The notes under the pieces are model-generated. The model did no database searches, had not been told where the DNA came from, and saw only the letters and a program-made list of their open reading frames with translations. Below, in pieces: positions 952 through 62,412 of a DNA stretch of 64,000 nt (position 1 is the first letter of the stretch; every line of letters begins with the position of its first letter). A program made the position numbers and the translations under genes. Origin of the DNA: Lingula anatina (taxonomy: Eukaryota; Animalia; Brachiopoda); the NCBI GenBank assembly GCA_051362555.1, contig CM120640.1, forward strand, positions 44,866,788 through 44,930,787, read 5' to 3'.

Positions 952-3900
952 GTAAGTAACCTGGCAGATGTCGTTTAGGTGTCATATAGTTGGGGCTGCT
1001 AGTTCAGTGCCTTTAAGCTGTACATGTTAATAGTGCAGTTGTGGCTGTATATGTAGTCACCTCCTGTTGCACTGTCCTTGGTCTCTTTTTTGCTACCGTT
1101 GTAATTTGATTACAGATAGTTTGGCCTCAAGCTCACTGGAATTACCTGTATATGTGGAATATATATAGCTAATAAAGGACCTTTGTTGGTTTGACATGAA
1201 TTTATAGTTTCTAGACAGTTAAATGGATCAACACTTTCTTGTATTTTGATGAATAATTTTTAATATGTGTTAGAATATAAATGTATATGCTGTAACAACT
1301 GAGTTTTTTTTTTAATTTGACACTTTGTTTTCAGATGCCCCAAATGAAGTTACCAGTGAATCTTTGACAGATTCTGAAGAAATACTTCAACCAAAATTAA
1401 ATTCAGATACAAAGACTGCAGATAAGCTATTCTGCTTGGAGACAAATAGCCAAGTATGTTGTTATTGAATAATTGTTTGAAAGAAATGCACAAAACATTG
1501 AAATAGCACAGTTTAGATGTTATTTTTATCAGTTTTTGTCCTAATGTGCCAATACATATTTTTTATTTTTAACACATAGCTTTGATTATTATTGCATATC
1601 AATTTCAGAAAATCCATGACATATCTCAGCTATTAGTTGTGAGCATTGAATCTCGGACTGGTGAGCCTTTGAGGCTGATGGGAGCTGATCTAAAAGGAGT
1701 CTTGTCGCCAGACTTGCTGTACTTTGAGGTATTTGAGAATAGGGATTGCTGATTCTGAGAGAATATAAGTTGTTGTAATATAAGGTTGCCTTTAGTTTTA
1801 TGGCATAAAGTTACACGAAAAAATGTTGTAGAGGAATAGTTTGTGGGATGGAAGACATGCTCTCTGTTGAATTTAGGAAAGGTTTTTAATTTTTTCTTTT
1901 ACTTACCAGCCATTATATTTTGCATGGTGCATATGCTGAAGCCCAACTTGTGTTAATTGATTTTTGACAATTCAGTGGCTAATTTCATTGTTTTTGCATT
2001 ACTTTCATTTGCTTTTTTTTCATCCAGTTTTTCTGCAGGTTAAAGTTTGATTATTTATCAGATGTGTCTGGCACCATACATGAAAAAGTGACTAATTTGA
2101 ATATAATAGATATGTGTTAGACCCATGCAATGGTTTAAATTGTTATACCCAACAATAATTTGATTCAGTTTCATAATAATATTGATATTTCATAGTAGCA
2201 AGGTTACATAACTATATGGTAATGCCATTTGTGTAATTTCAGGGTAGCCAGCAGATGTTGGTGGTAGGTAGCAGTAACCAGGACACTATTCAAATCTACA
2301 GTATGGTGGACAAGCAATTGGAGAGAATGCATGCAATAGTAAGTCATTTTTATCACTTGTTTAAGGGGGGTTATGTCTGCCTCCCTTCTGTTATCTAGCT
2401 ATTCACCCATCTTTTTATGGTACTTTCATGGTACTATTGCCTGGAGTGGAATTTTAATTAAAACTACAACTAATCATTGTTTAACAGAAATACAAATTCA
2501 GTTTGAAAATTCTACAGCCAAGATGACATAAAACTAGAACACATTTGGTATAGCTTTTCTTGGGATGATTGGGTGGTCCTGATAAGGACCGCATGGTCAA
2601 CCATGGTGGGGCTATAGAAAAACAGCCAGCCAGTTGAGAAGTATAGTTCTCAGTGCTGTTTGGTGTCTATTGCTCCTTCAAACATAGAGACTGGGTTCGT
2701 AGACAGTGGAATACTGAATACATTCATGGCCCTGTCAGTCATGTTCTTGGAGTATCTCAGCAACATCTCTTTGAGGTCTTCCACATAGCTGAGCCTGACG
2801 GAGAGCTTCATTACCCAGGCTTGTCTTCTCTTATCTGATGCCCTGCTAATGCTGGCCCTTAGATGTTGGGCGTAGTTGTGCAACCACTGTGCATACACTG
2901 TGGCTTTGTGGCACTTGAGGAACGTGGTGTAGGTTGTATCGGCTGTAACAGCATTTCTTATTTCTTGGCAGTAGTTATCCATTCTGTGATATGGTAGTGG
3001 CTCTATCTTACAGTCCAATATGATAGCAGTAAGGTGGTGATTCTATATCAGCAAAGGTTTGCAAAGTTGGTGTTGATTCTTCTGCTCAGTATATGTTCTG
3101 AACCCTGTCAGGTAGTTGCAGTCTTATATATACCAGGGCCATGAGGTCTGTTAACATTCTGAATTTAATTAACAGTATGACACCTGCCATGTCATTGTTT
3201 TCTGTGTCTGTCAAGAAAGTCAAACAAGGTGACACTTCCCAGGTAGTAAACTGCCAGTCACCTGGCAGGCTGTCAGTGTCACCACGTAAGTGCTACCTGT
3301 AACTGTTGTCAGGTAGTAAATAGTCCTCTAAGATTCACCAGGTAGTTTCACCAGGTAGGAGGTCATTAATTCATCCATCTGTGCATTTATAATAATGATA
3401 ATAATCAGCCTTCCTTAATTTAAAATAAATGACAGAGGTGCTAGTAACACACAAGCTCAGCTTGCTATTTAGATATTAATATTTAATTTTGTTTGACATG
3501 TGTATAATAATGCTGTGAATATTCACCTGTAATTTAAGATATTGGGTATGCTAGCAAGAGGATTTGTTAAAGAAAGATAAACGAACATGAATGTGCTTTA
3601 TGTTAAGGCCTGAGTCCCAATAATTGCTGAACATGAGTATCACTTAATACATAAAGCTGAACATTTGGTCTAGCCCTTTGACAAAGTCATATCATTTATT
3701 TGGTGACAGTCTCTCTCATTGTATATTGTTAATTAGAAAGTGATATGTAATTAACACTTAATGCACTGGTATGCAATCAAGACTGAGACAGTTATTGACA
3801 CTGACAAGTTTGCAGCCTCACCTGAGAAATTGAGCTGACATGTTTGTTTATGCCACAGGTTGATGTGTCAATATATGTGTCAAAGAGGTTTTTTTTTTTT

Positions 3901-6900
3901 TAGATTTAGGCTTACTGCACACTTGAGAATAGATGTGATTCAAAACATCACTGTATCTTAAATAAAAAAGATGATTAAATGTTTTTTTTTAATGAAACAG
4001 ATCCAGTTAATTATTTTATATCACAAATTTAAAAGAAAGTATTGTTTGAAATGGATCACTTAATTTAAATAAATCTTTTGGAATGTGGAATGTGTATTTT
4101 TAGTGATTTTTTATATATATCACATTGTTGTCATTTACTTTATACTGTGGAAGATGTTAGTTGTAGATTTAAAAAAAAACTAAACTTTGATTTTTTTACA
4201 CAATTTTATAGTTTAACTAATTGATAATTACACTGTATCACATTTCAATAATAATAAAAAGATTCGAGATACATTGTTTGAAGGTTATTTCAGTTGATGT
4301 TTTTAGAAAAAAAGGCCAACTTCTTTCATTGAAAAGTGAATACCAAAATATTACCTCACTGGAAAGGTAGTCTGTATCTATGATAGAAGATATCTTTTGG
4401 GTCCTAGTCTATATATAAAATAACATTGAAGTGATACGAGTTACTATATATATTAAACCAAGGTCATTTTATACGTCCTTGATTAAACAGAAGAAGAAGT
4501 GACACAGATTAGAAATCAGCCAGAGCTTTTCTAATAAATCTGTGCTTCGTTATATATCTTCCAATTTGAAAAACACATTTACACTCAGTATCTTCTTTTG
4601 CAGAAGCTGAGCCAAGATGAGAGGCCAAAAGGGATATGTGGACTGTCCAATTCCTTGGCCACAGGGTCTGGCCTCTTAATTATGGTGGCCAAGCTGACCA
4701 AAAGTGATCCCACCTTCTTACCGTCCAGTCCATATGCTGAATATGAACTTTCACTGAAGTATATATCTATGCCACAAGGTAATTATTTAGTTTATTTGTT
4801 TGGTTGTTTTTTATGTTTATTAATGTGTTGTAGTACAATGTATGAAATATTCTTTTCTGAATATTTTTCATGTGCAGGTACTTGTCAGAGTTAACAAAAT
4901 TCAAAAATTGATACATCCAATGGTTTTTCAAATACCTTGCCATCAATAACATGCTTATAGCAAAAAAAATGGCTAAAAAGCATTAAAGATTTAATTTTGT
5001 TTGGCTTTTTTTTAACATCCCTTAATTAAGACTATAAAAGCCCTGGAGATTGGTCCATTTTAAATGGGCATAATTGGACTTTTCCTTCAATTTTTGCAGT
5101 AGTTTTTCTCATGAGTTTGACCTAAAGGACAATTTAACTGCCAAATGATAGGTTTGTTTGCAATAAAATCTTCGAGAATAACACTCGGGTCTAGAGTACA
5201 GGTCAAGGTTAATTGTAAAAGAGCACGTCTGATTATTCCTTACATATTTGTGATCCCTTTTTTATGAGTAAGGCCATGTAGAACTTGCACTTTGCAGTAG
5301 AATTAATCTTTTTCTAATGTTCGTCTTATTCTTCCAATATTAAAAATCCCACATTTTGGTCAGAATCCAACCTGCTTGAATCTTATTTACTTAAAGGCCT
5401 GTCAAAGACACATTTTTACAACAAATGTCCTAATTTTGTAATCACTCATTCATTGTTCACAATGACAACCACAGGGGTGTGACTATTAACTGTGCAAAGA
5501 CAGCTGCAAAGTTTTGCTTTGCTATTTTTCATTTTTATCTTTATTTTCAAATGTTCAATGAAGGTACACTTTAGCCATAATGTTGATACTTTATGATGGC
5601 TACAGTGATGGCTATCCCTGTTCCTCCTCTATTTAAATGGAAATGAATTTTTGTGCCATCTCAAATTATAATGAAAACAACACTCAGGTAGACTTGATTC
5701 CTGTTTCTCTTTAACTACATCTCTGTTTGTTTATGAAGTGGAGTTTAAAAACCCTGTAGCCAAATAATTCAAATTAACATTTATTGTTCGAAATAGCTCG
5801 GTTATGCCAGGATCAGTTTATGTTAACCGTTACTGAATTGGAAGATAGGAGTCGTGAGCTGACCGTGCCTAAGCGTTTGTTTTTTGGTTTTAACATATAC
5901 ATCTGAAGTAACTGAATAAACTGATAATTAGCATGGCATAAGGTGGGTTCTGCAAAAAACGCACATAACTGGATCCAATATAAGACCAAGTAATTATCTT
6001 AATCGTTTGGTATGAATCCTACTTGCTTGAATCCCATTTACTCAGATGCCTGCCAAAGTAATACCTTTACAAATTAAAAAAAAAATGTCCAAACTGTTCT
6101 CACTAAGCCAGAAGGCTCAGTGACCATTTTGTCTGACCAGTTCAGAGAGGTGTGACTGTAAACATGTCAAAACTGACCACTGCAATAGTGGAGGGGAGTT
6201 GGCAGCAATTATCCATACATCATGTATTAGGGAAGGGATGGCAAGTTGACAAGTTGGTCTTCCCATTTTGATTGCTGTCCTACCTCAGGCAAAGGTAAAA
6301 ACATTATTAGGGACTCTCTAAAGGTGAAGTTGTGTTGTCTATTACAGCCCCTAGTATAGATTTATATCAACATTAGTAACAGTAAGTATCAGAATATGTG
6401 CATATAATCATATGTCCTTTTGAACACATTTGTGTTTAGTTGTTTGTATATACTTTGCATATGGAAATAGTCAGATTATGGAAAATTTGTCACATATTGT
6501 GCACAGTTCTGTTTGAATGGTACCAAAATAAACACAAAGAGGGACTCAATATCAGATATTGATATTATATACGCATGCCCTCTGCAGTATATTGTATTGC
6601 ACAAAGCTACAGCAGTTCTGTCAGGCATTTTATGAATAGCAAATACCTGGCATATTTCGATTAAAAGGACTTGGGATATTTTTATTCATTAAACCCCAAT
6701 TGCTCTTTTGACAGTGGTTATTTGCTGACCCCAAAAGCACATCAGGTGCGCCAGCCATGTGTGCGTATGTAATACTGGTTTAATGTGTTTTATCATCTAG
6801 ACATTTTCACTGAGATATAGGTGAAGTTTAGGTGAGTGTTTTTATATATTATGTCAAGTTATAGCAGATCTAGTGCTATAAGGTACTGATAAAAGTAAAG

Positions 6901-22327: not shown

Positions 22328-22501
22328 GGGGGCGTCTCGATAGTCCGAAGGTTCATTGGTCCGAAGGTTCATTGGTCCGAAAAGTGGTAACATTTTCATC
22401 GCTTTTTTAATCAAGGGTTCATTGGTCCGAAGGTTCTATAGTGAACATTCGGACCAATGAACCTTCGGACTATTGAACCTTCGGACTATCGCTACGGCCC
22501 C
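22328..22501. mobile_element. Foldback/Mutator-like MITE with 16-bp subterminal repeats and 9-bp TSD
   Basis: TIRs GGGGGCGTCTCGATAGTCCGAAGG and CCTTCGGACTATCGCTACGGCCCC; internal GTCCGAAGGTTCATTG units in both orientations; exact flanking direct repeat CATACTAAG at 22319-22327 and 22502-22510. Confidence 0.85.
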
Positions 22502-24621: not shown

Positions 24622-26214
24622 TCATCCAATAAAGAAATGAACACCATCCCCTTTAGTTCTAGTTATGTTATCAGCGCCTTCGGCCAAGTTTGACAAACTT
24701 GTACCTGATGAAGGGGATGCCATGGTCTTCATTTCTGTGTCTAACATTTCAGTCGTTGTTTTGAGATTACGTGTTTCCTGATTGTTGCAGTTTTCGACAG
24801 GTTCGTGGTGTTCGCTCGTTTGTCTGCCGTCTGTGTGATTGTCAAGCAAACTAATAGTAACAGCTTTCTTCATTTTTTCGTTGCCTGATGAAGTTGTAGA
24901 CGATGAGTCAGATCGGTTGATGGTAGAACTTGCTGAAAATGACCGAACCTTCAAACAATTCTGTTTTGTATCAACTCCTTGTAAAGCCTCTCTGTCTTTG
25001 GTTTCTTTAAAGCTAATGACACTTTTATTCCTTTGGTTATCTCTAAAATGCGATCGATCTTTCATGCACTTCCATTTTTTCCATAATCTCCGTAACTCCT
25101 TTTGAATCACTCTATTCCTGAAAACGTACACTATGGGATTGAGTGCACACGACGTAAAAGCCAGCCAAATGGACAAAACTTCCACCAAAGAAGGTATACT
25201 TGAGGGGTCCGACATAGTCGACTCGAGGACAATAATTATGAAATATGGTACCCAGCATATACAAAATGTCGACATCACGATCATGCCAGTTTTTGCTGCT
25301 TTACGATCATCTTTGTGAAAGAGCGAAATACTGCGGCTTAGAATGCTGCTTCGCCGTCGAAGCCCGTTGCTGCCAGCAACACCCTGAGCGCTCCCCCTCC
25401 TCGATCCCTCCCGGGGTAAGAGATCGTCGCTACTGAGCTCGGGTTGAACGCTATTTCGCCTTGCCCGCGCGCTCGTTTTCTGAGCTGCTCGAAATACAGT
25501 GATGTAAACCCATAATGTTATTAGAAAAGGAATGATAAAACATAATACTGATAAAAATATTGTGTAAAATTTGTCCTTTAAGACTTGTGTTCGCCACTTG
25601 ACAGTGCAGAGACATTTGTGCTTTTGGAATTCGATGTAGTTCCATCCGAACAGTGGTGGGATTGCAAATAAGCTAGCCAGAATCCATACCGCGCAGATCA
25701 TGAGATTGGCACGCAGTGTCGTGAACCTCATAGAATAATGCAGCGGTGAAGTAATAGCTGAGTATCTGTCCACCGATATGAGCAACAGAGTAAGAATACA
25801 CGCGGCGAAAAGCAGCGTGTTCGACACCCCCGTGACCTGGCACCAGAGGTTGCCAAAAACCCATTCCTGGGTCCACGCTGATGTCAGTGCAAACGGCATT
25901 ACGAGAAGTCCCATCAGAAAGTCACCCGCAGCCAGATTCAATATAAACCGATTCGATATAGTCAACAATGCCGACCGGCGCTTGTAAAATACTGCAAACA
26001 CTAAAAGGTTGCTGCAGATTGTGACTAGAAAAACCACTGACATTAATGTTACTGTTATGGCTATTTTCACGGGGTCATCTTCGACGCCACCGATCACTGC
26101 CATTTTCCCATTGTAGTCTGCTGCCACTATATTTTTAGAGAGGTTTGTCTCCAGTCCACTCACTATGGAAAAATTGCTTGCATGAGCAGCTGGCATGTTG
26201 TAAGTGTCAAACAT
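24622..26214 (-). CDS. GPR161: Class A (rhodopsin-like) GPCR, GPR161-like, 530 aa, single coding exon
   Basis: Seven hydrophobic segments; DRY, CWVPY and NPIVY motifs; LLTISNRFILNL, EWVFGNLWC, PPLFGWNYIEF and RVIQKEL resemble remembered GPR161 (LLTLSNKFVFSL, EWIFGVVWC, PPLFGWSSVEF, KTVRKEL). GPCR call is near certain; orthology (GPR161 versus GPR101-like or a paralogue) is less so. Confidence 0.8.
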   Translation of the reverse strand: MFDTYNMPAAHASNFSIVSGLETNLSKNIVAADYNGKMAVIGGVEDDPVKIAITVTLMSVVFLVTICSNLLVFAVFYKRRSALLTISNRFILNLAAGDFLMGLLVMPFALTSAWTQEWVFGNLWCQVTGVSNTLLFAACILTLLLISVDRYSAITSPLHYSMRFTTLRANLMICAVWILASLFAIPPLFGWNYIEFQKHKCLCTVKWRTQVLKDKFYTIFLSVLCFIIPFLITLWVYITVFRAAQKTSARARRNSVQPELSSDDLLPREGSRRGSAQGVAGSNGLRRRSSILSRSISLFHKDDRKAAKTGMIVMSTFCICWVPYFIIIVLESTMSDPSSIPSLVEVLSIWLAFTSCALNPIVYVFRNRVIQKELRRLWKKWKCMKDRSHFRDNQRNKSVISFKETKDREALQGVDTKQNCLKVRSFSASSTINRSDSSSTTSSGNEKMKKAVTISLLDNHTDGRQTSEHHEPVENCNNQETRNLKTTTEMLDTEMKTMASPSSGTSLSNLAEGADNITRTKGDGVHFFIG

Positions 26215-26812
26215 TTGTCCAGCTACCTCACGATTTTCTTCAGAAACATGAATATTTTAACACGCACCTAGTCCTTTTAAACATGTCCAGAGACTGTTCC
26301 GAGAATTGATTTTGTCAGCCTTTTCTTAGAATGTTCGATTATTGAGTACAACAAAAAGAAACCCTTGGCAAGCGCCACATCCATGGTTAGTAGCGTAGTT
26401 GTCAAACTTCAGATCGAATTCCCTAAATCTCTTGAAAAATCTCTTCCGTCCGTTCAAGACAATTTCTAGGAATGCTCCAAAGCTTTCACTGCGCTTCCAA
26501 TAATAACAATAATGAATGAACAGAATGGATTATGCATCCCACGTTGATGTTGCTCACTCGCTTTCATCGGCCGTTCTGATTCATCATGTTACATCGGCGA
26601 AGCGTGGATTGAAGCGAGCGAAATCAATTTACCGAAACCTGCTGAGTATGGTGATGGACCGTGCGGGCCATTCGAAGCCAGATCGTAACGTTTGTGATGC
26701 CTTCGCCGCGGACTTGATGAACCAACGGGATCGGCACCCAGCCTCTGGTCGTTAACAGGTTCGGCACAGCTACCTGGTGTGGGGGTGAAGCTGGAAATAG
26801 ACAGGCAAGAGA
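26215..26812 (-). other. Long 5' UTR part of the GPCR coding exon and its splice acceptor
   Basis: Minus strand tctcttgcctgtctatttccag (26812-26791) is a strong acceptor, giving a CpG-rich leader of about 575 nt with several uATGs. A candidate upstream donor AAG/gtaaga lies at 27998. Confidence 0.5.
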
Positions 26813-33800: not shown

Positions 33801-36409
33801 TTGTTTGGACCGTACTACGCGTCTCCACCACATTTCCCAATATTACAACTGAGACCAAAAAACTCTAACTGGGACACATTTCTTGTAAACGCGTCTTTCT
33901 CTTACTTATTACTTGGTACAACATAAATAACAAGTCTGTGCATTTACTAACCTTTAATGTAGACAATTCTACATTTACTAAGTAATTCAAAATTCCCGGT
34001 CCTAAACCAGGATGACTAAATTTGTGAAGACGGCGTAATTGTTTACCCTGAACTTCAGGATTTTGAAACAAACTAGTTACATTTTGAGTCTGAGACTGCT
34101 GGCTTGGTTGATTTATTTGTAATATTGGCTTTTAATTTCCGTTCTGTAGCACGTTATTGCTTACGGTTTTTACACTTATCATTTTGACACTTGGTTTCCT
34201 TTTTCACGTCTCTCAAACGCGCTGAAGTATGTGGATAAAACGACCAGTCGTAAAAGGCATAACATTTAACTTAGGTCAAACACCGAAAACCGAAACATCC
34301 GGAAATAATCAAATTATTGCCGAATCATTAGATCATTTGGGATAAAATCCTAGTCTAAAAAAATCTGATTTCGATCGGTAGAGACCTGCGGCATTTCATT
34401 TTATTCATTCAGTTAGTCAGTCAGTCATTCATTCGTAATTTCAATATTAACTTTATCTGTGCACAAGTCGGGTTGTTTCTCTGTACTAGCTTGATGCTTT
34501 ACGAACACCAAAGAGTAAAAAAAAAAAAAAAAAAAAAAAAAAACATCAGTATCTGATAAATGTACCAAAAAACGTTTAGCAAAGTGCACTGCGTTAATAG
34601 ACTTCTATCGTGCATTTTTTTCTTTAGTGAAACCTGACGATAAGACCTTTGAACTAATCAAAAGTAATAATCACCAAACAGCATGAAGCTAAAATCCGTA
34701 TTTAGTGCACGAGGACACGTGTCCTGTACTTTGCACCAGAAGCCCTTCTTGGTTGAAGGACCGATTTTGTAACAGCCCGGCCGATTTGGTAACAGATAGA
34801 AGAGCCTCTGACAGAGATTTTGTGCCCTGCATGCCCGCCAACGCCCTTGTGATTTTTTTCATCATCATCAGCATCTTGCGCGCGAAGTCCTCCATTAAAA
34901 TCAATCATTTTGACTTAAAAAAATGTGATTGGGGCATCTCACGCTACAAAAATTGGCTTATCCATCAATTTTCTCGCAAGCATGCAGACCACAAAAGTCG
35001 TAAAGAGGCCTTATTTCAGCCAGGGTTATTCTCAGGTCTTAGTTTCCGTTGTCACCGATATTGAATGTTATTAAAGAAGGGAATGAGAGAAAAGGCATCG
35101 ATGGCCCTGTTGTTTTGAGAACAAGTACGGAATTCTATTAAAAACTTATTTTTTAACCATTAAAAGATGTTTGTTTTAAACACTAGATTTGGAGACCTAC
35201 GAAGCAAATAACTAATTTAAATGATACGAGTAGATACCGGTAGGACTAATTACCCAGGAAATTGGCCCACAGATTTATCTTTTTGGGTATGTTAACGACT
35301 TTGATAACAGTAGAGATGCTAGTTTCTCAGACAGAGAAGAGTATAAGGCCCTATGTAGAGGGAAATCATAGCTTTGGATTTATTGGAAAATGTTTCGCAT
35401 TCGATGGTCTTGCAGTCTGAAGATCACCTACTTCAAGGTATCTTTGCATTCGAGTATTCTTTCAATCCACTAAGCTTAAATAAGCCTAAATGCAAAGGTC
35501 CTGAGTTTTTGTCTTAAATGTAAGCACTTAACTAATTTAAAGCTATAAGAACTGATCAAGTATGAAAATCATCGTGTTGTTTTGTTCATGTCGTACTTGA
35601 TCATTTTGGAGTCTCCGTCAGTTTATTCAACTTAAGACAACTAGGTTTTCAGGTGCTCTTATGAAGAATATGCACTTGCAGTGTAGAAAAGAAAAAAAAG
35701 GGTCTTAAAAATGAGTGGTAAACTGGCATTCCTGTGACGCCTTAAAACCTGCCACTACATAAAAGCCCTACCAGAGTACATAGAAATAAATTAATATAAA
35801 ATAAATAATAGGCTAGAGAAACCTAACATAAAACAAAAATAGAATAGGCCCTAATGCATAGGCCTATAGGGCCTACATAAAAATTATTTCACATAATTAC
35901 TTTGTCTCATTGTCTTTTTTTTTTTTTTTTTTTTGTATTAAATTTAATGGCATTAAATTTAATACACAAAAGAGAGAACGAACCAAAGATAATTAACTGA
36001 AGAAGTGTAGGCCCCAACTGGGGTAGGCCTACATGTAGGCCCTAGGATTAGGCCTACGTGTACAGTAGGCCTACTTGTGCAAGAGAATAGAATTAAAAAT
36101 CCGATCGCCACGTGTTACATAATGGGGAATGGTAACGTTCTTGTTCACCAACGGCTAACTTCAGACTAACATCGTTATGAATTCTTAGAGGATACAGATG
36201 TCAGAAAAATCTTTAATATGGAATATGCACAGTGTTAGGCCTAGCCACCTCTCTTTTCAACTTCACATTCAGGTATTTAAACGGGTAAAATCGCGTCATA
36301 CAGCAAACGCATTGTAAAATTTTCATTTCTATCATGATTTAAATTAGCCGTAGCAAATATCACTAGGTATTTGTTTGATTTTTCGTCTGGATATTAATAA
36401 ACGTTACTT

Positions 36410-37769: not shown

Positions 37770-62412
<24,643 letters not shown>

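Follow-up and report, generated by a model that had tools for sequence, protein, structure and literature searches.

Within an intron of the WDCP gene, and antisense to it, the window (the whole stretch of 64,000 nucleotides that was analysed) carries a unit that combines the anatomy of a small intronless gene, a histone-grade 3' signal and an open reading frame (ORF) with a coding signature and no likeness to histones. The unit is histone-gene-like in layout, yet it is not a replication-dependent histone gene, because its product is not a histone. We favour, with a little more confidence than doubt, the reading that this is a real gene for a non-histone protein of 110 amino acids, the message of which would be cut after ACCCA by SLBP and U7 rather than polyadenylated. 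The original prediction, in which a non-histone mRNA co-opts histone processing, agrees with the histone-grade 3' signal, the coding signature, the lack of histone likeness and the orientation of the RNA reads; the amount of those reads, on the other hand, lies near background.

If the favoured reading is right, a zinc-finger activator would bind a cluster of CAGGTAG motifs and fire a TATA promoter, and an unspliced RNA of ~530 nt (3099 to 2570) would, if its anatomy and the way in which histone messages are processed are a guide, be bound by SLBP. U7 would then pair with the purine-rich element, CPSF73 would cut after ACCCA, and SLBP would drive translation before a quick decay, so that a small basic protein with a helical hairpin might appear in a brief pulse. 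The timing of this pulse, most likely early embryonic or proliferative, would be the weakest step, being drawn only from analogy with the CAGGTAG (TAGteam) genes of flies.

Anatomy of the unit and its host intron

All of the elements that had been predicted on the minus strand (TATA box, TCA, leader, agaATGg, ORF, TGA, UTR, stem-loop, ACCCA and HDE) were found again in the sequence, base for base, at their positions (Table 1). The nesting of the unit, antisense, in a WDCP intron was upheld as well: the exon that follows the intron gave a match to WDCP in Pfam (E 1.4e-8), whereas the other five of the six host-strand segments scanned matched nothing. Joints in RNA reads are listed for the two introns upstream of the host intron, and none is listed for the host intron itself. 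Elsewhere in the window, positions 24622-26256 of the minus strand hold one long ORF for a GPR161-like receptor of the rhodopsin family, and the exons at 57134-61082 (plus strand), which encode acidic repeats of the DDDFxDF type, are candidate exons of synergin gamma.

Table 1. Features of the unit and its surroundings, in window coordinates
Feature	Position	Strand	Basis
Host intron of the WDCP gene	2339..4603	+	GT...AG ends in sequence; Pfam WDCP on next exon
Direct repeat of 14 nt, right copy	3661..3674		possible target-site duplication, weak
Six CAGGTAG (3109, 3240, 3310, 3339, 3352 on +; 3293 on -), with CACCTG at 3181 and 3259	3109..3358		sequence
TATA box TATATATAAG, including TATATAAG at 3130-3123	3123..3132	-	sequence; function inferred
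Initiator-like TCA, predicted transcription start	3099..3101	-	sequence; inferred
ATG-free 5' leader, ~117 nt	2983..3099	-	sequence
Intronless ORF for a protein of 110 aa, 12.9 kDa and pI 9.4, modelled as a helical hairpin; searches gave no homologue	2650..2982	-	sequence, model, negative searches
3' UTR, 59 nt, in which more hairpins are predicted; CATGC, non-consensus, precedes the stem	2591..2649	-	sequence, folding
Histone-type stem-loop GGTCCT-TATC-AGGACC	2575..2590	-	sequence, Rfam Histone3, comparison with histone loci
ACCCA, after which (~2570) cleavage is predicted	2570..2574	-	sequence; cleavage by analogy with histone mRNAs
HDE-like CAAGAAAAG, 12 nt past stem	2554..2562	-	sequence; spacing equal to an H2B locus (L048)
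Direct repeat of 14 nt, left copy, one mismatch to the right copy	2541..2554		possible target-site duplication, weak
ATTAAA, candidate alternative poly(A) signal, 112 nt beyond the predicted end	2453..2458	-	sequence

The 3' end compared with those of histone genes

The stem is a perfect helix of 6 bp closed by a loop of 4 nt, and both of the positions reported as diagnostic for histone stem-loops, a G-C at stem pair 2 and a U at loop position 3, are present (10.64898/2026.10.14.759114). The TGA lies 59 nt from the stem and 54 nt from the 26-nt element, the latter value falling within the 25-60 nt given for the distance between stop and 26-nt element in histone genes (10.64898/2026.10.14.759114). 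The scan with Rfam Histone3 that had been proposed as a check gave a divided answer: over 1301 nt of the locus the stem-loop scores 29.4 bits (E 4.9e-6; by rescaling, ~6e-8 for this one family across the whole window), but this is below the gathering score of 34, at which a scan of the whole window returned 0 matches. Five distinct hairpins of the GG..CC type with 6 bp and 4 nt occur in the window, and the one at 2575-2590 is the only one with ACC directly after it. The stop codon and UTR (2591-2652, minus strand) fold into more hairpins, and the 108-nt 3' region as a whole is unusually stable (z -3.5; 1 of 200 shuffles equally stable).

How does such a score compare with those of genuine histone genes? 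Since the loop at 2575-2590 has A at position 2, metagenome contigs were scanned for the loop variant with A at that position, which yielded 132 matches in 120 loci from 60 of the 64 parts of the collection. Histone sequence precedes 18 of the 132 matches, 12 by tblastn and 6 by H1-like Lys/Ala/Pro tails. The very 16-mer of the window stands behind a canonical H4 ORF (L031) and behind an H1-like tail (L100), and an H2B locus (L048) carries CAAGAAAAG at the identical spacing of 12 nt. In eight histone-linked loci of the same loop type, which we selected among 12 loci scanned, Histone3 scores range from 26.6 to 36.6 bits and only one reaches 34. The score in the window therefore lies inside the range of real loci, seven of which fall below the gathering score as well, and is ordinary for a genuine signal of this type. 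Judged by this calibration, the 3' element is histone-type, as had been claimed.

A rival idea is that the elements of the unit stand together by chance, or that a Helitron-type terminal hairpin merely resembles a histone signal. The score under the Rfam threshold would be in keeping with this idea. The 19-nt pattern also turns up in contigs of high GC content that seem to be prokaryotic, as well as in six viral contigs (the six viral matches were taken as chance, having no histone context), and a CTAGT does lie downstream of the hairpin. In Helitrons, the hairpin stands ~10-15 nt before the CTRR end. Here, CTAG lies 37 nt beyond the hairpin, and a Helitron end was rejected because the first CTRR-T starts 38 nt past it, too far. 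As stem, ACCCA, HDE, position of the ORF, GC bias at third codon positions, TATA box and motif cluster all coincide, we regard chance or a Helitron as very improbable.

Two features that went unmentioned in the original prediction, the CATGC flank and the ATTAAA at 2458, speak against its reading. The flank has no A at -3, where 17 of the 18 histone-linked matches have one, and thus lacks the adenines of SLBP/U7-processed mRNAs; two 5' adenines are reported to be necessary for wild-type affinity of SLBP (PMC10388802). The downstream element CAAGAAAAG has no perfect AAAGA and agrees at 4 of 5 positions with the universal UCUUU box of U7 (PMC5054213). Flank and imperfect AAAGA together count against full function of the 3' signal. 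The absence of AATAAA from the 59-nt UTR was confirmed, the nearest hexamers being the ATTAAA at 2458 and an AATAAA at 1567; the former makes an ordinary poly(A) route possible and so weighs against processing by SLBP and U7.

It is conceivable, although we rate it as unlikely, that the unit is a real gene, or a young relic, in which a 3' signal of histone origin goes unused or is in decay, and whose RNA, if made, is polyadenylated downstream, at the ATTAAA, or is bimorphic like that of H2A.X. The A-poor flank, the imperfect match to U7 and the ATTAAA would all fit with decay, as would the depletion of CpG in the ORF (5 observed against 18 expected). On the other side stand the perfect 6-bp helix, identical to live-type signals of H4 and H1, and the intact ACCCA and spacing; moreover, A-poor 5' flanks are also found at some H1-like loci (L110, L089).

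The reading frame and its predicted product

The coding sequence is continuous, with its agaATGg start at 2982, codons from 2982 to 2653 and TGA at 2652-2650. An ATG-initiated ORF of at least 110 codons that ends no more than 70 nt from the stem arose in 4 of 5000 shuffles. G or C occupies 65 of the 110 third codon positions versus 89 of the 220 first and second positions (Fisher p 0.0016), a GC3 that was reached by 5 of 2000 stop-free shuffles (the positional chi-square by 26 of 2000), and equal periodicity appears in none of the 68 other GC-matched tiles of the window. By the measures of GC3 bias and shuffling, the ORF has a coding signature. Codon-usage log-odds gave no coding signal for it, in a test that failed on the GPCR of the window as well.

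The proposed search for relatives came back empty in protein, metagenome and viral collections, so that there is no comparison by which selection on the ORF could be shown. Word-indexed search returned no protein relative near the length of the ORF and, among longer proteins, 58 candidates with none at E <=1; nor did any relative emerge from phmmer against 1.84 billion representatives, from exact look-up, from PHROGs, from PDB sequences (best E 0.42), from metagenome and viral contigs or from the ESM Atlas (recognition 1843, uninformative). The single Pfam match, IFT122 at E 0.035, was rejected.

That the protein has no recognisable histone fold, as originally maintained, agrees with the searches by sequence and by fold. 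Pfam, up to E 10, finds neither a histone family nor a transposon domain in it, and tblastn with H1, H2B, H3 and H4 from fetched loci has its best hit at E 0.07, outside the ORF (H2A was absent from these seeds and is covered by Pfam); by Pfam and tblastn, then, the ORF encodes neither a core nor a linker histone. A single-sequence structure model has two long helices in a hairpin (pLDDT 66.7), for which Foldseek gave no match at E 0.001 against PDB and BFVD. The best VIA-align score, Z 10.5, denotes a generic helical hairpin with unrelated rows tied, and no histone is among the fold-search matches listed. A histone, or a variant of the histone fold, that has diverged almost beyond recognition would make the unit an ordinary replication-dependent histone gene, and could be suspected from the length of 110 residues, the basic pI, the helical prediction and the histone-type layout of the gene. 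In view of the negative Pfam and tblastn searches, the modelled two-helix hairpin, the fold matches and a content of Lys plus Arg of only 15 in 110, we find it barely credible. Its role is where our reading is least constrained; a small basic helical hairpin would most likely bind a nucleic acid or another protein.

Promoter and motif cluster

The distance from the TATA box (its first T) to the A of the TCA is 31 nt. The motif cluster that had been noticed by the promoter consists of CAGGTAG heptamers: 6 of the 13 copies in the whole window fall within 3109-3358, and no 7-mer occurred six times in any of 2000 shuffles of this region. To judge from this clustering, the CAGGTAG copies and the CACCTG motifs are likely activator sites, and zinc fingers of the ZEB/Snail type, which bind similar sites, are candidate activators.

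In flies, the early genes of the TAGteam/Zelda system are polyadenylated. Like the unit, they are short and have CAGGTAG heptamers clustered close to their start (PMC5832190). In Drosophila, CAGGTAG goes by the name of TAGteam motif, belongs to the zygotic genes that act earliest and is bound by Zelda, which is described as a Pancrustacean factor (PMC5832190). By contrast, the GPR161-like receptor of the window has its best matches outside arthropods: named matches come from nemerteans, amphioxus, molluscs and an annelid, with no arthropod among 34 matches, and in a quick tree it groups, with weak support (77), with annelid and nemertean rows, outside a mollusc clade that is itself well supported. 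Because Zelda is Pancrustacean and the named matches include no arthropod, Zelda is unlikely to be the activator of the cluster.

RNA reads over the unit

Four RNA runs under one species label, with tissue and stage unlabelled, were mapped to positions 1300-4900 (of each run, ~6 to 25 in 100 was read). Stranded reads over the locus, another of the checks that had been called for, have the orientation expected: in the stranded runs X11 and X16, first mates from host exons lie on the minus strand and the reads at 2752-3114 lie opposite, as a minus-strand RNA predicts. Their amount, however, is small (266 and 223 bases, or ~one pair each in X11 and X16) and close to background, given that ~2 of 3 antisense fragments fall in the unit, which makes up 15% of the stretch (P about 0.06). 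X11 has one further antisense pair, at 1905-2146; X17 has no reads in the unit, and X14 none on the stretch at all. X11, the source of one of the two read pairs over the ORF, is a poly(A) library, which would suit an RNA polyadenylated downstream of an unused histone signal. The 3' end itself was not reached, as no read covers 2510-2751 in the four runs. A search of sequencing runs listed ten DNA runs, from 4 studies and under one organism label, that contain part of the stretch, and no RNA run. Altogether, the reads are compatible with a minus-strand gene and prove nothing.

Relation to known systems and significance

With the replication-dependent histone genes of metazoans (RF00032 Histone3; SLBP; U7 snRNP; CPSF73), the unit shares a short intronless ORF, a TATA box, a stem of 6 bp with a loop of 4 nt placed 54-59 nt after the stop, ACCCA, a purine-rich element 12 nt further on and a UTR without AATAAA. 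Unlike them, it encodes a protein that is no histone, stands alone and nested antisense in an intron, lacks the usual adenines in its flank, and is known here from its sequence. The bimorphic mRNA of H2A.X (H2AFX) is described as having a stem-loop end and resembles the unit in the candidate poly(A) signal farther downstream (PMC4604434), but the window protein is no histone and its ATTAAA is only a candidate signal. The U7-repressed HERV1/LTR12 elements and lincRNAs are likewise non-histone sequences with a U7-type element; there, U7 is reported to repress transcription via HDE-like motifs with no cleavage at a stem-loop, whereas the ORF in the window is followed by stem-loop and HDE in the layout of 3' cleavage (10.1101/2023.08.25.554787).

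Among cellular mRNAs, those of histones are described as alone in lacking a poly(A) tail and in serving as ligands of SLBP (PMC4604434, PMC5054213). In HeLa cells, SLBP is reported to have bound no mRNAs other than those of histones (PMC4604434), which counts against processing of the present message by SLBP and U7. Genes of this kind would necessarily have escaped the most recent stem-loop survey, which searched behind histone coding sequences only. In a literature search from which subscription papers mostly fell outside, no paper on a non-histone mRNA with a histone stem-loop end was found. If the favoured reading is true, a non-histone client of SLBP overturns the rule that only histone mRNAs end in this way, annotation based on poly(A) misses a class of genes, and nature provides a test of stem-loop function apart from histones.

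Origin of the 3' signal and tests for a mobile element

By what route could a histone 3' signal come to stand behind a non-histone ORF? The signal resembles the ends of H1 and H2B genes, so a histone gene was probably its source, and a mobile element perhaps did the copying. It is a further step to suppose that the unit is itself the interior of a mobile element, i.e. a non-autonomous DNA transposon or captured cassette of ~1.1 kb (2555-3660), in which CAGGTAG would be a subterminal repeat and the ORF an accessory gene that maybe uses the histone end. What invites this thought is the 14-nt direct repeat, the left copy of which adjoins the HDE so that the pair would bound such an insert, and the fact that the unit is a GC-rich island in an AT-rich intron. 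Controls for the direct repeat gave 1/300 (narrow and post hoc), 29/300 (wide) and 4/67 (empirical), which makes it a lead only. The 48 terminal inverted repeat candidates are weak and AT-rich, none with a duplication above 4 nt; no second motif cluster or second stem lies at the other end of the unit, no second copy of the unit occurs within the 64-kb window, and the protein has no transposon domain in Pfam. A mobile-element interior thus appears distinctly unlikely. Membership in a MULE or another TIR transposon was rejected, no TIR with a target-site duplication having been found around the unit. Clusters of short inverted and tandem repeats at 22343-22489 and 36026-36070 of the window (16-nt units of the GTCCGAAGG type; AGGCCTA-rich palindromes) are probably MITE-like repeats.

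Histone-type stem-loops behind other non-histone sequences

The scan for the loop variant also uncovered stem-loops in transposons. Of the 132 matches, 58 lie within the inverted repeats of a Mutator-type element, or MULE, at 46 loci that all belong to a single assembly (L002, L014, L020, L056, L120 and 41 more). L002 contains an ORF with a Pfam MULE domain (E 2.3e-13), the stop of which precedes the stem-loop by 42 nt, and the long terminal inverted repeats of the element hold the last codons of the transposase, the stop and then the stem-loop with ACCA and AAAGAG. Target duplications of 9 bp flank three of the four complete short elements. The stem-loops score 31.4-34.3 bits with Histone3 and are nearly identical to the end of an H4 gene (L102) in the same assembly. 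Such an arrangement points to a transposase message that would end like a histone mRNA; a literature search that did not extend to subscription papers found no paper on a transposon or Mutator transposase mRNA with a histone stem-loop.

Like the window unit, the MULE has a non-histone ORF that ends ~40-60 nt before a histone stem-loop, followed by ACC and a purine-rich element. Unlike the unit, it has a transposase, long inverted repeats and 9-bp duplications, none of which is clear in the unit, and the two share no sequence. Its terminal repeats, with the signal inside and duplications around full elements, lend something to the thought of a mobile element in the window; what the MULE, which belongs to another organism, shows, as far as sequence comparison goes, is that histone 3' signals can be captured behind a non-histone ORF, which is a route only and not the history of the window gene. 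To return to the favoured reading, it might be widened as follows, tentatively and with considerable doubt: some invertebrates may route non-histone messages, those of fast-evolving orphan genes and of DNA-transposon genes, via SLBP and U7; the present gene may couple this end to a CAGGTAG promoter and so produce, outside insects, a burst in the early embryo; and Mutator elements may be one of the means by which captured histone 3' ends are carried to new genes.

Further stem-loops of this type were met in other contexts. Two repeated families carry the same stem-loop with no clear ORF upstream, one with seven loci (L009, L010, L043, L063, L090, L091, L112) and another with four (L046, L054, L060, L105). 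On the minus strand of L082 (280-324), a stem-loop of 33.3 bits follows a non-histone reading frame by 23 nt, within the 300 nt of upstream DNA covered. Finally, L019 (113-940, plus strand) holds an intronless non-histone ORF of 255 amino acids with no Pfam match, the last codons of which overlap an AATAAA; a stem-loop of 30.5 bits with AAAGAG stands 20 nt after its stop, and the C-terminus of the protein perhaps resembles P2X7-tail/Kolobok accessory proteins.
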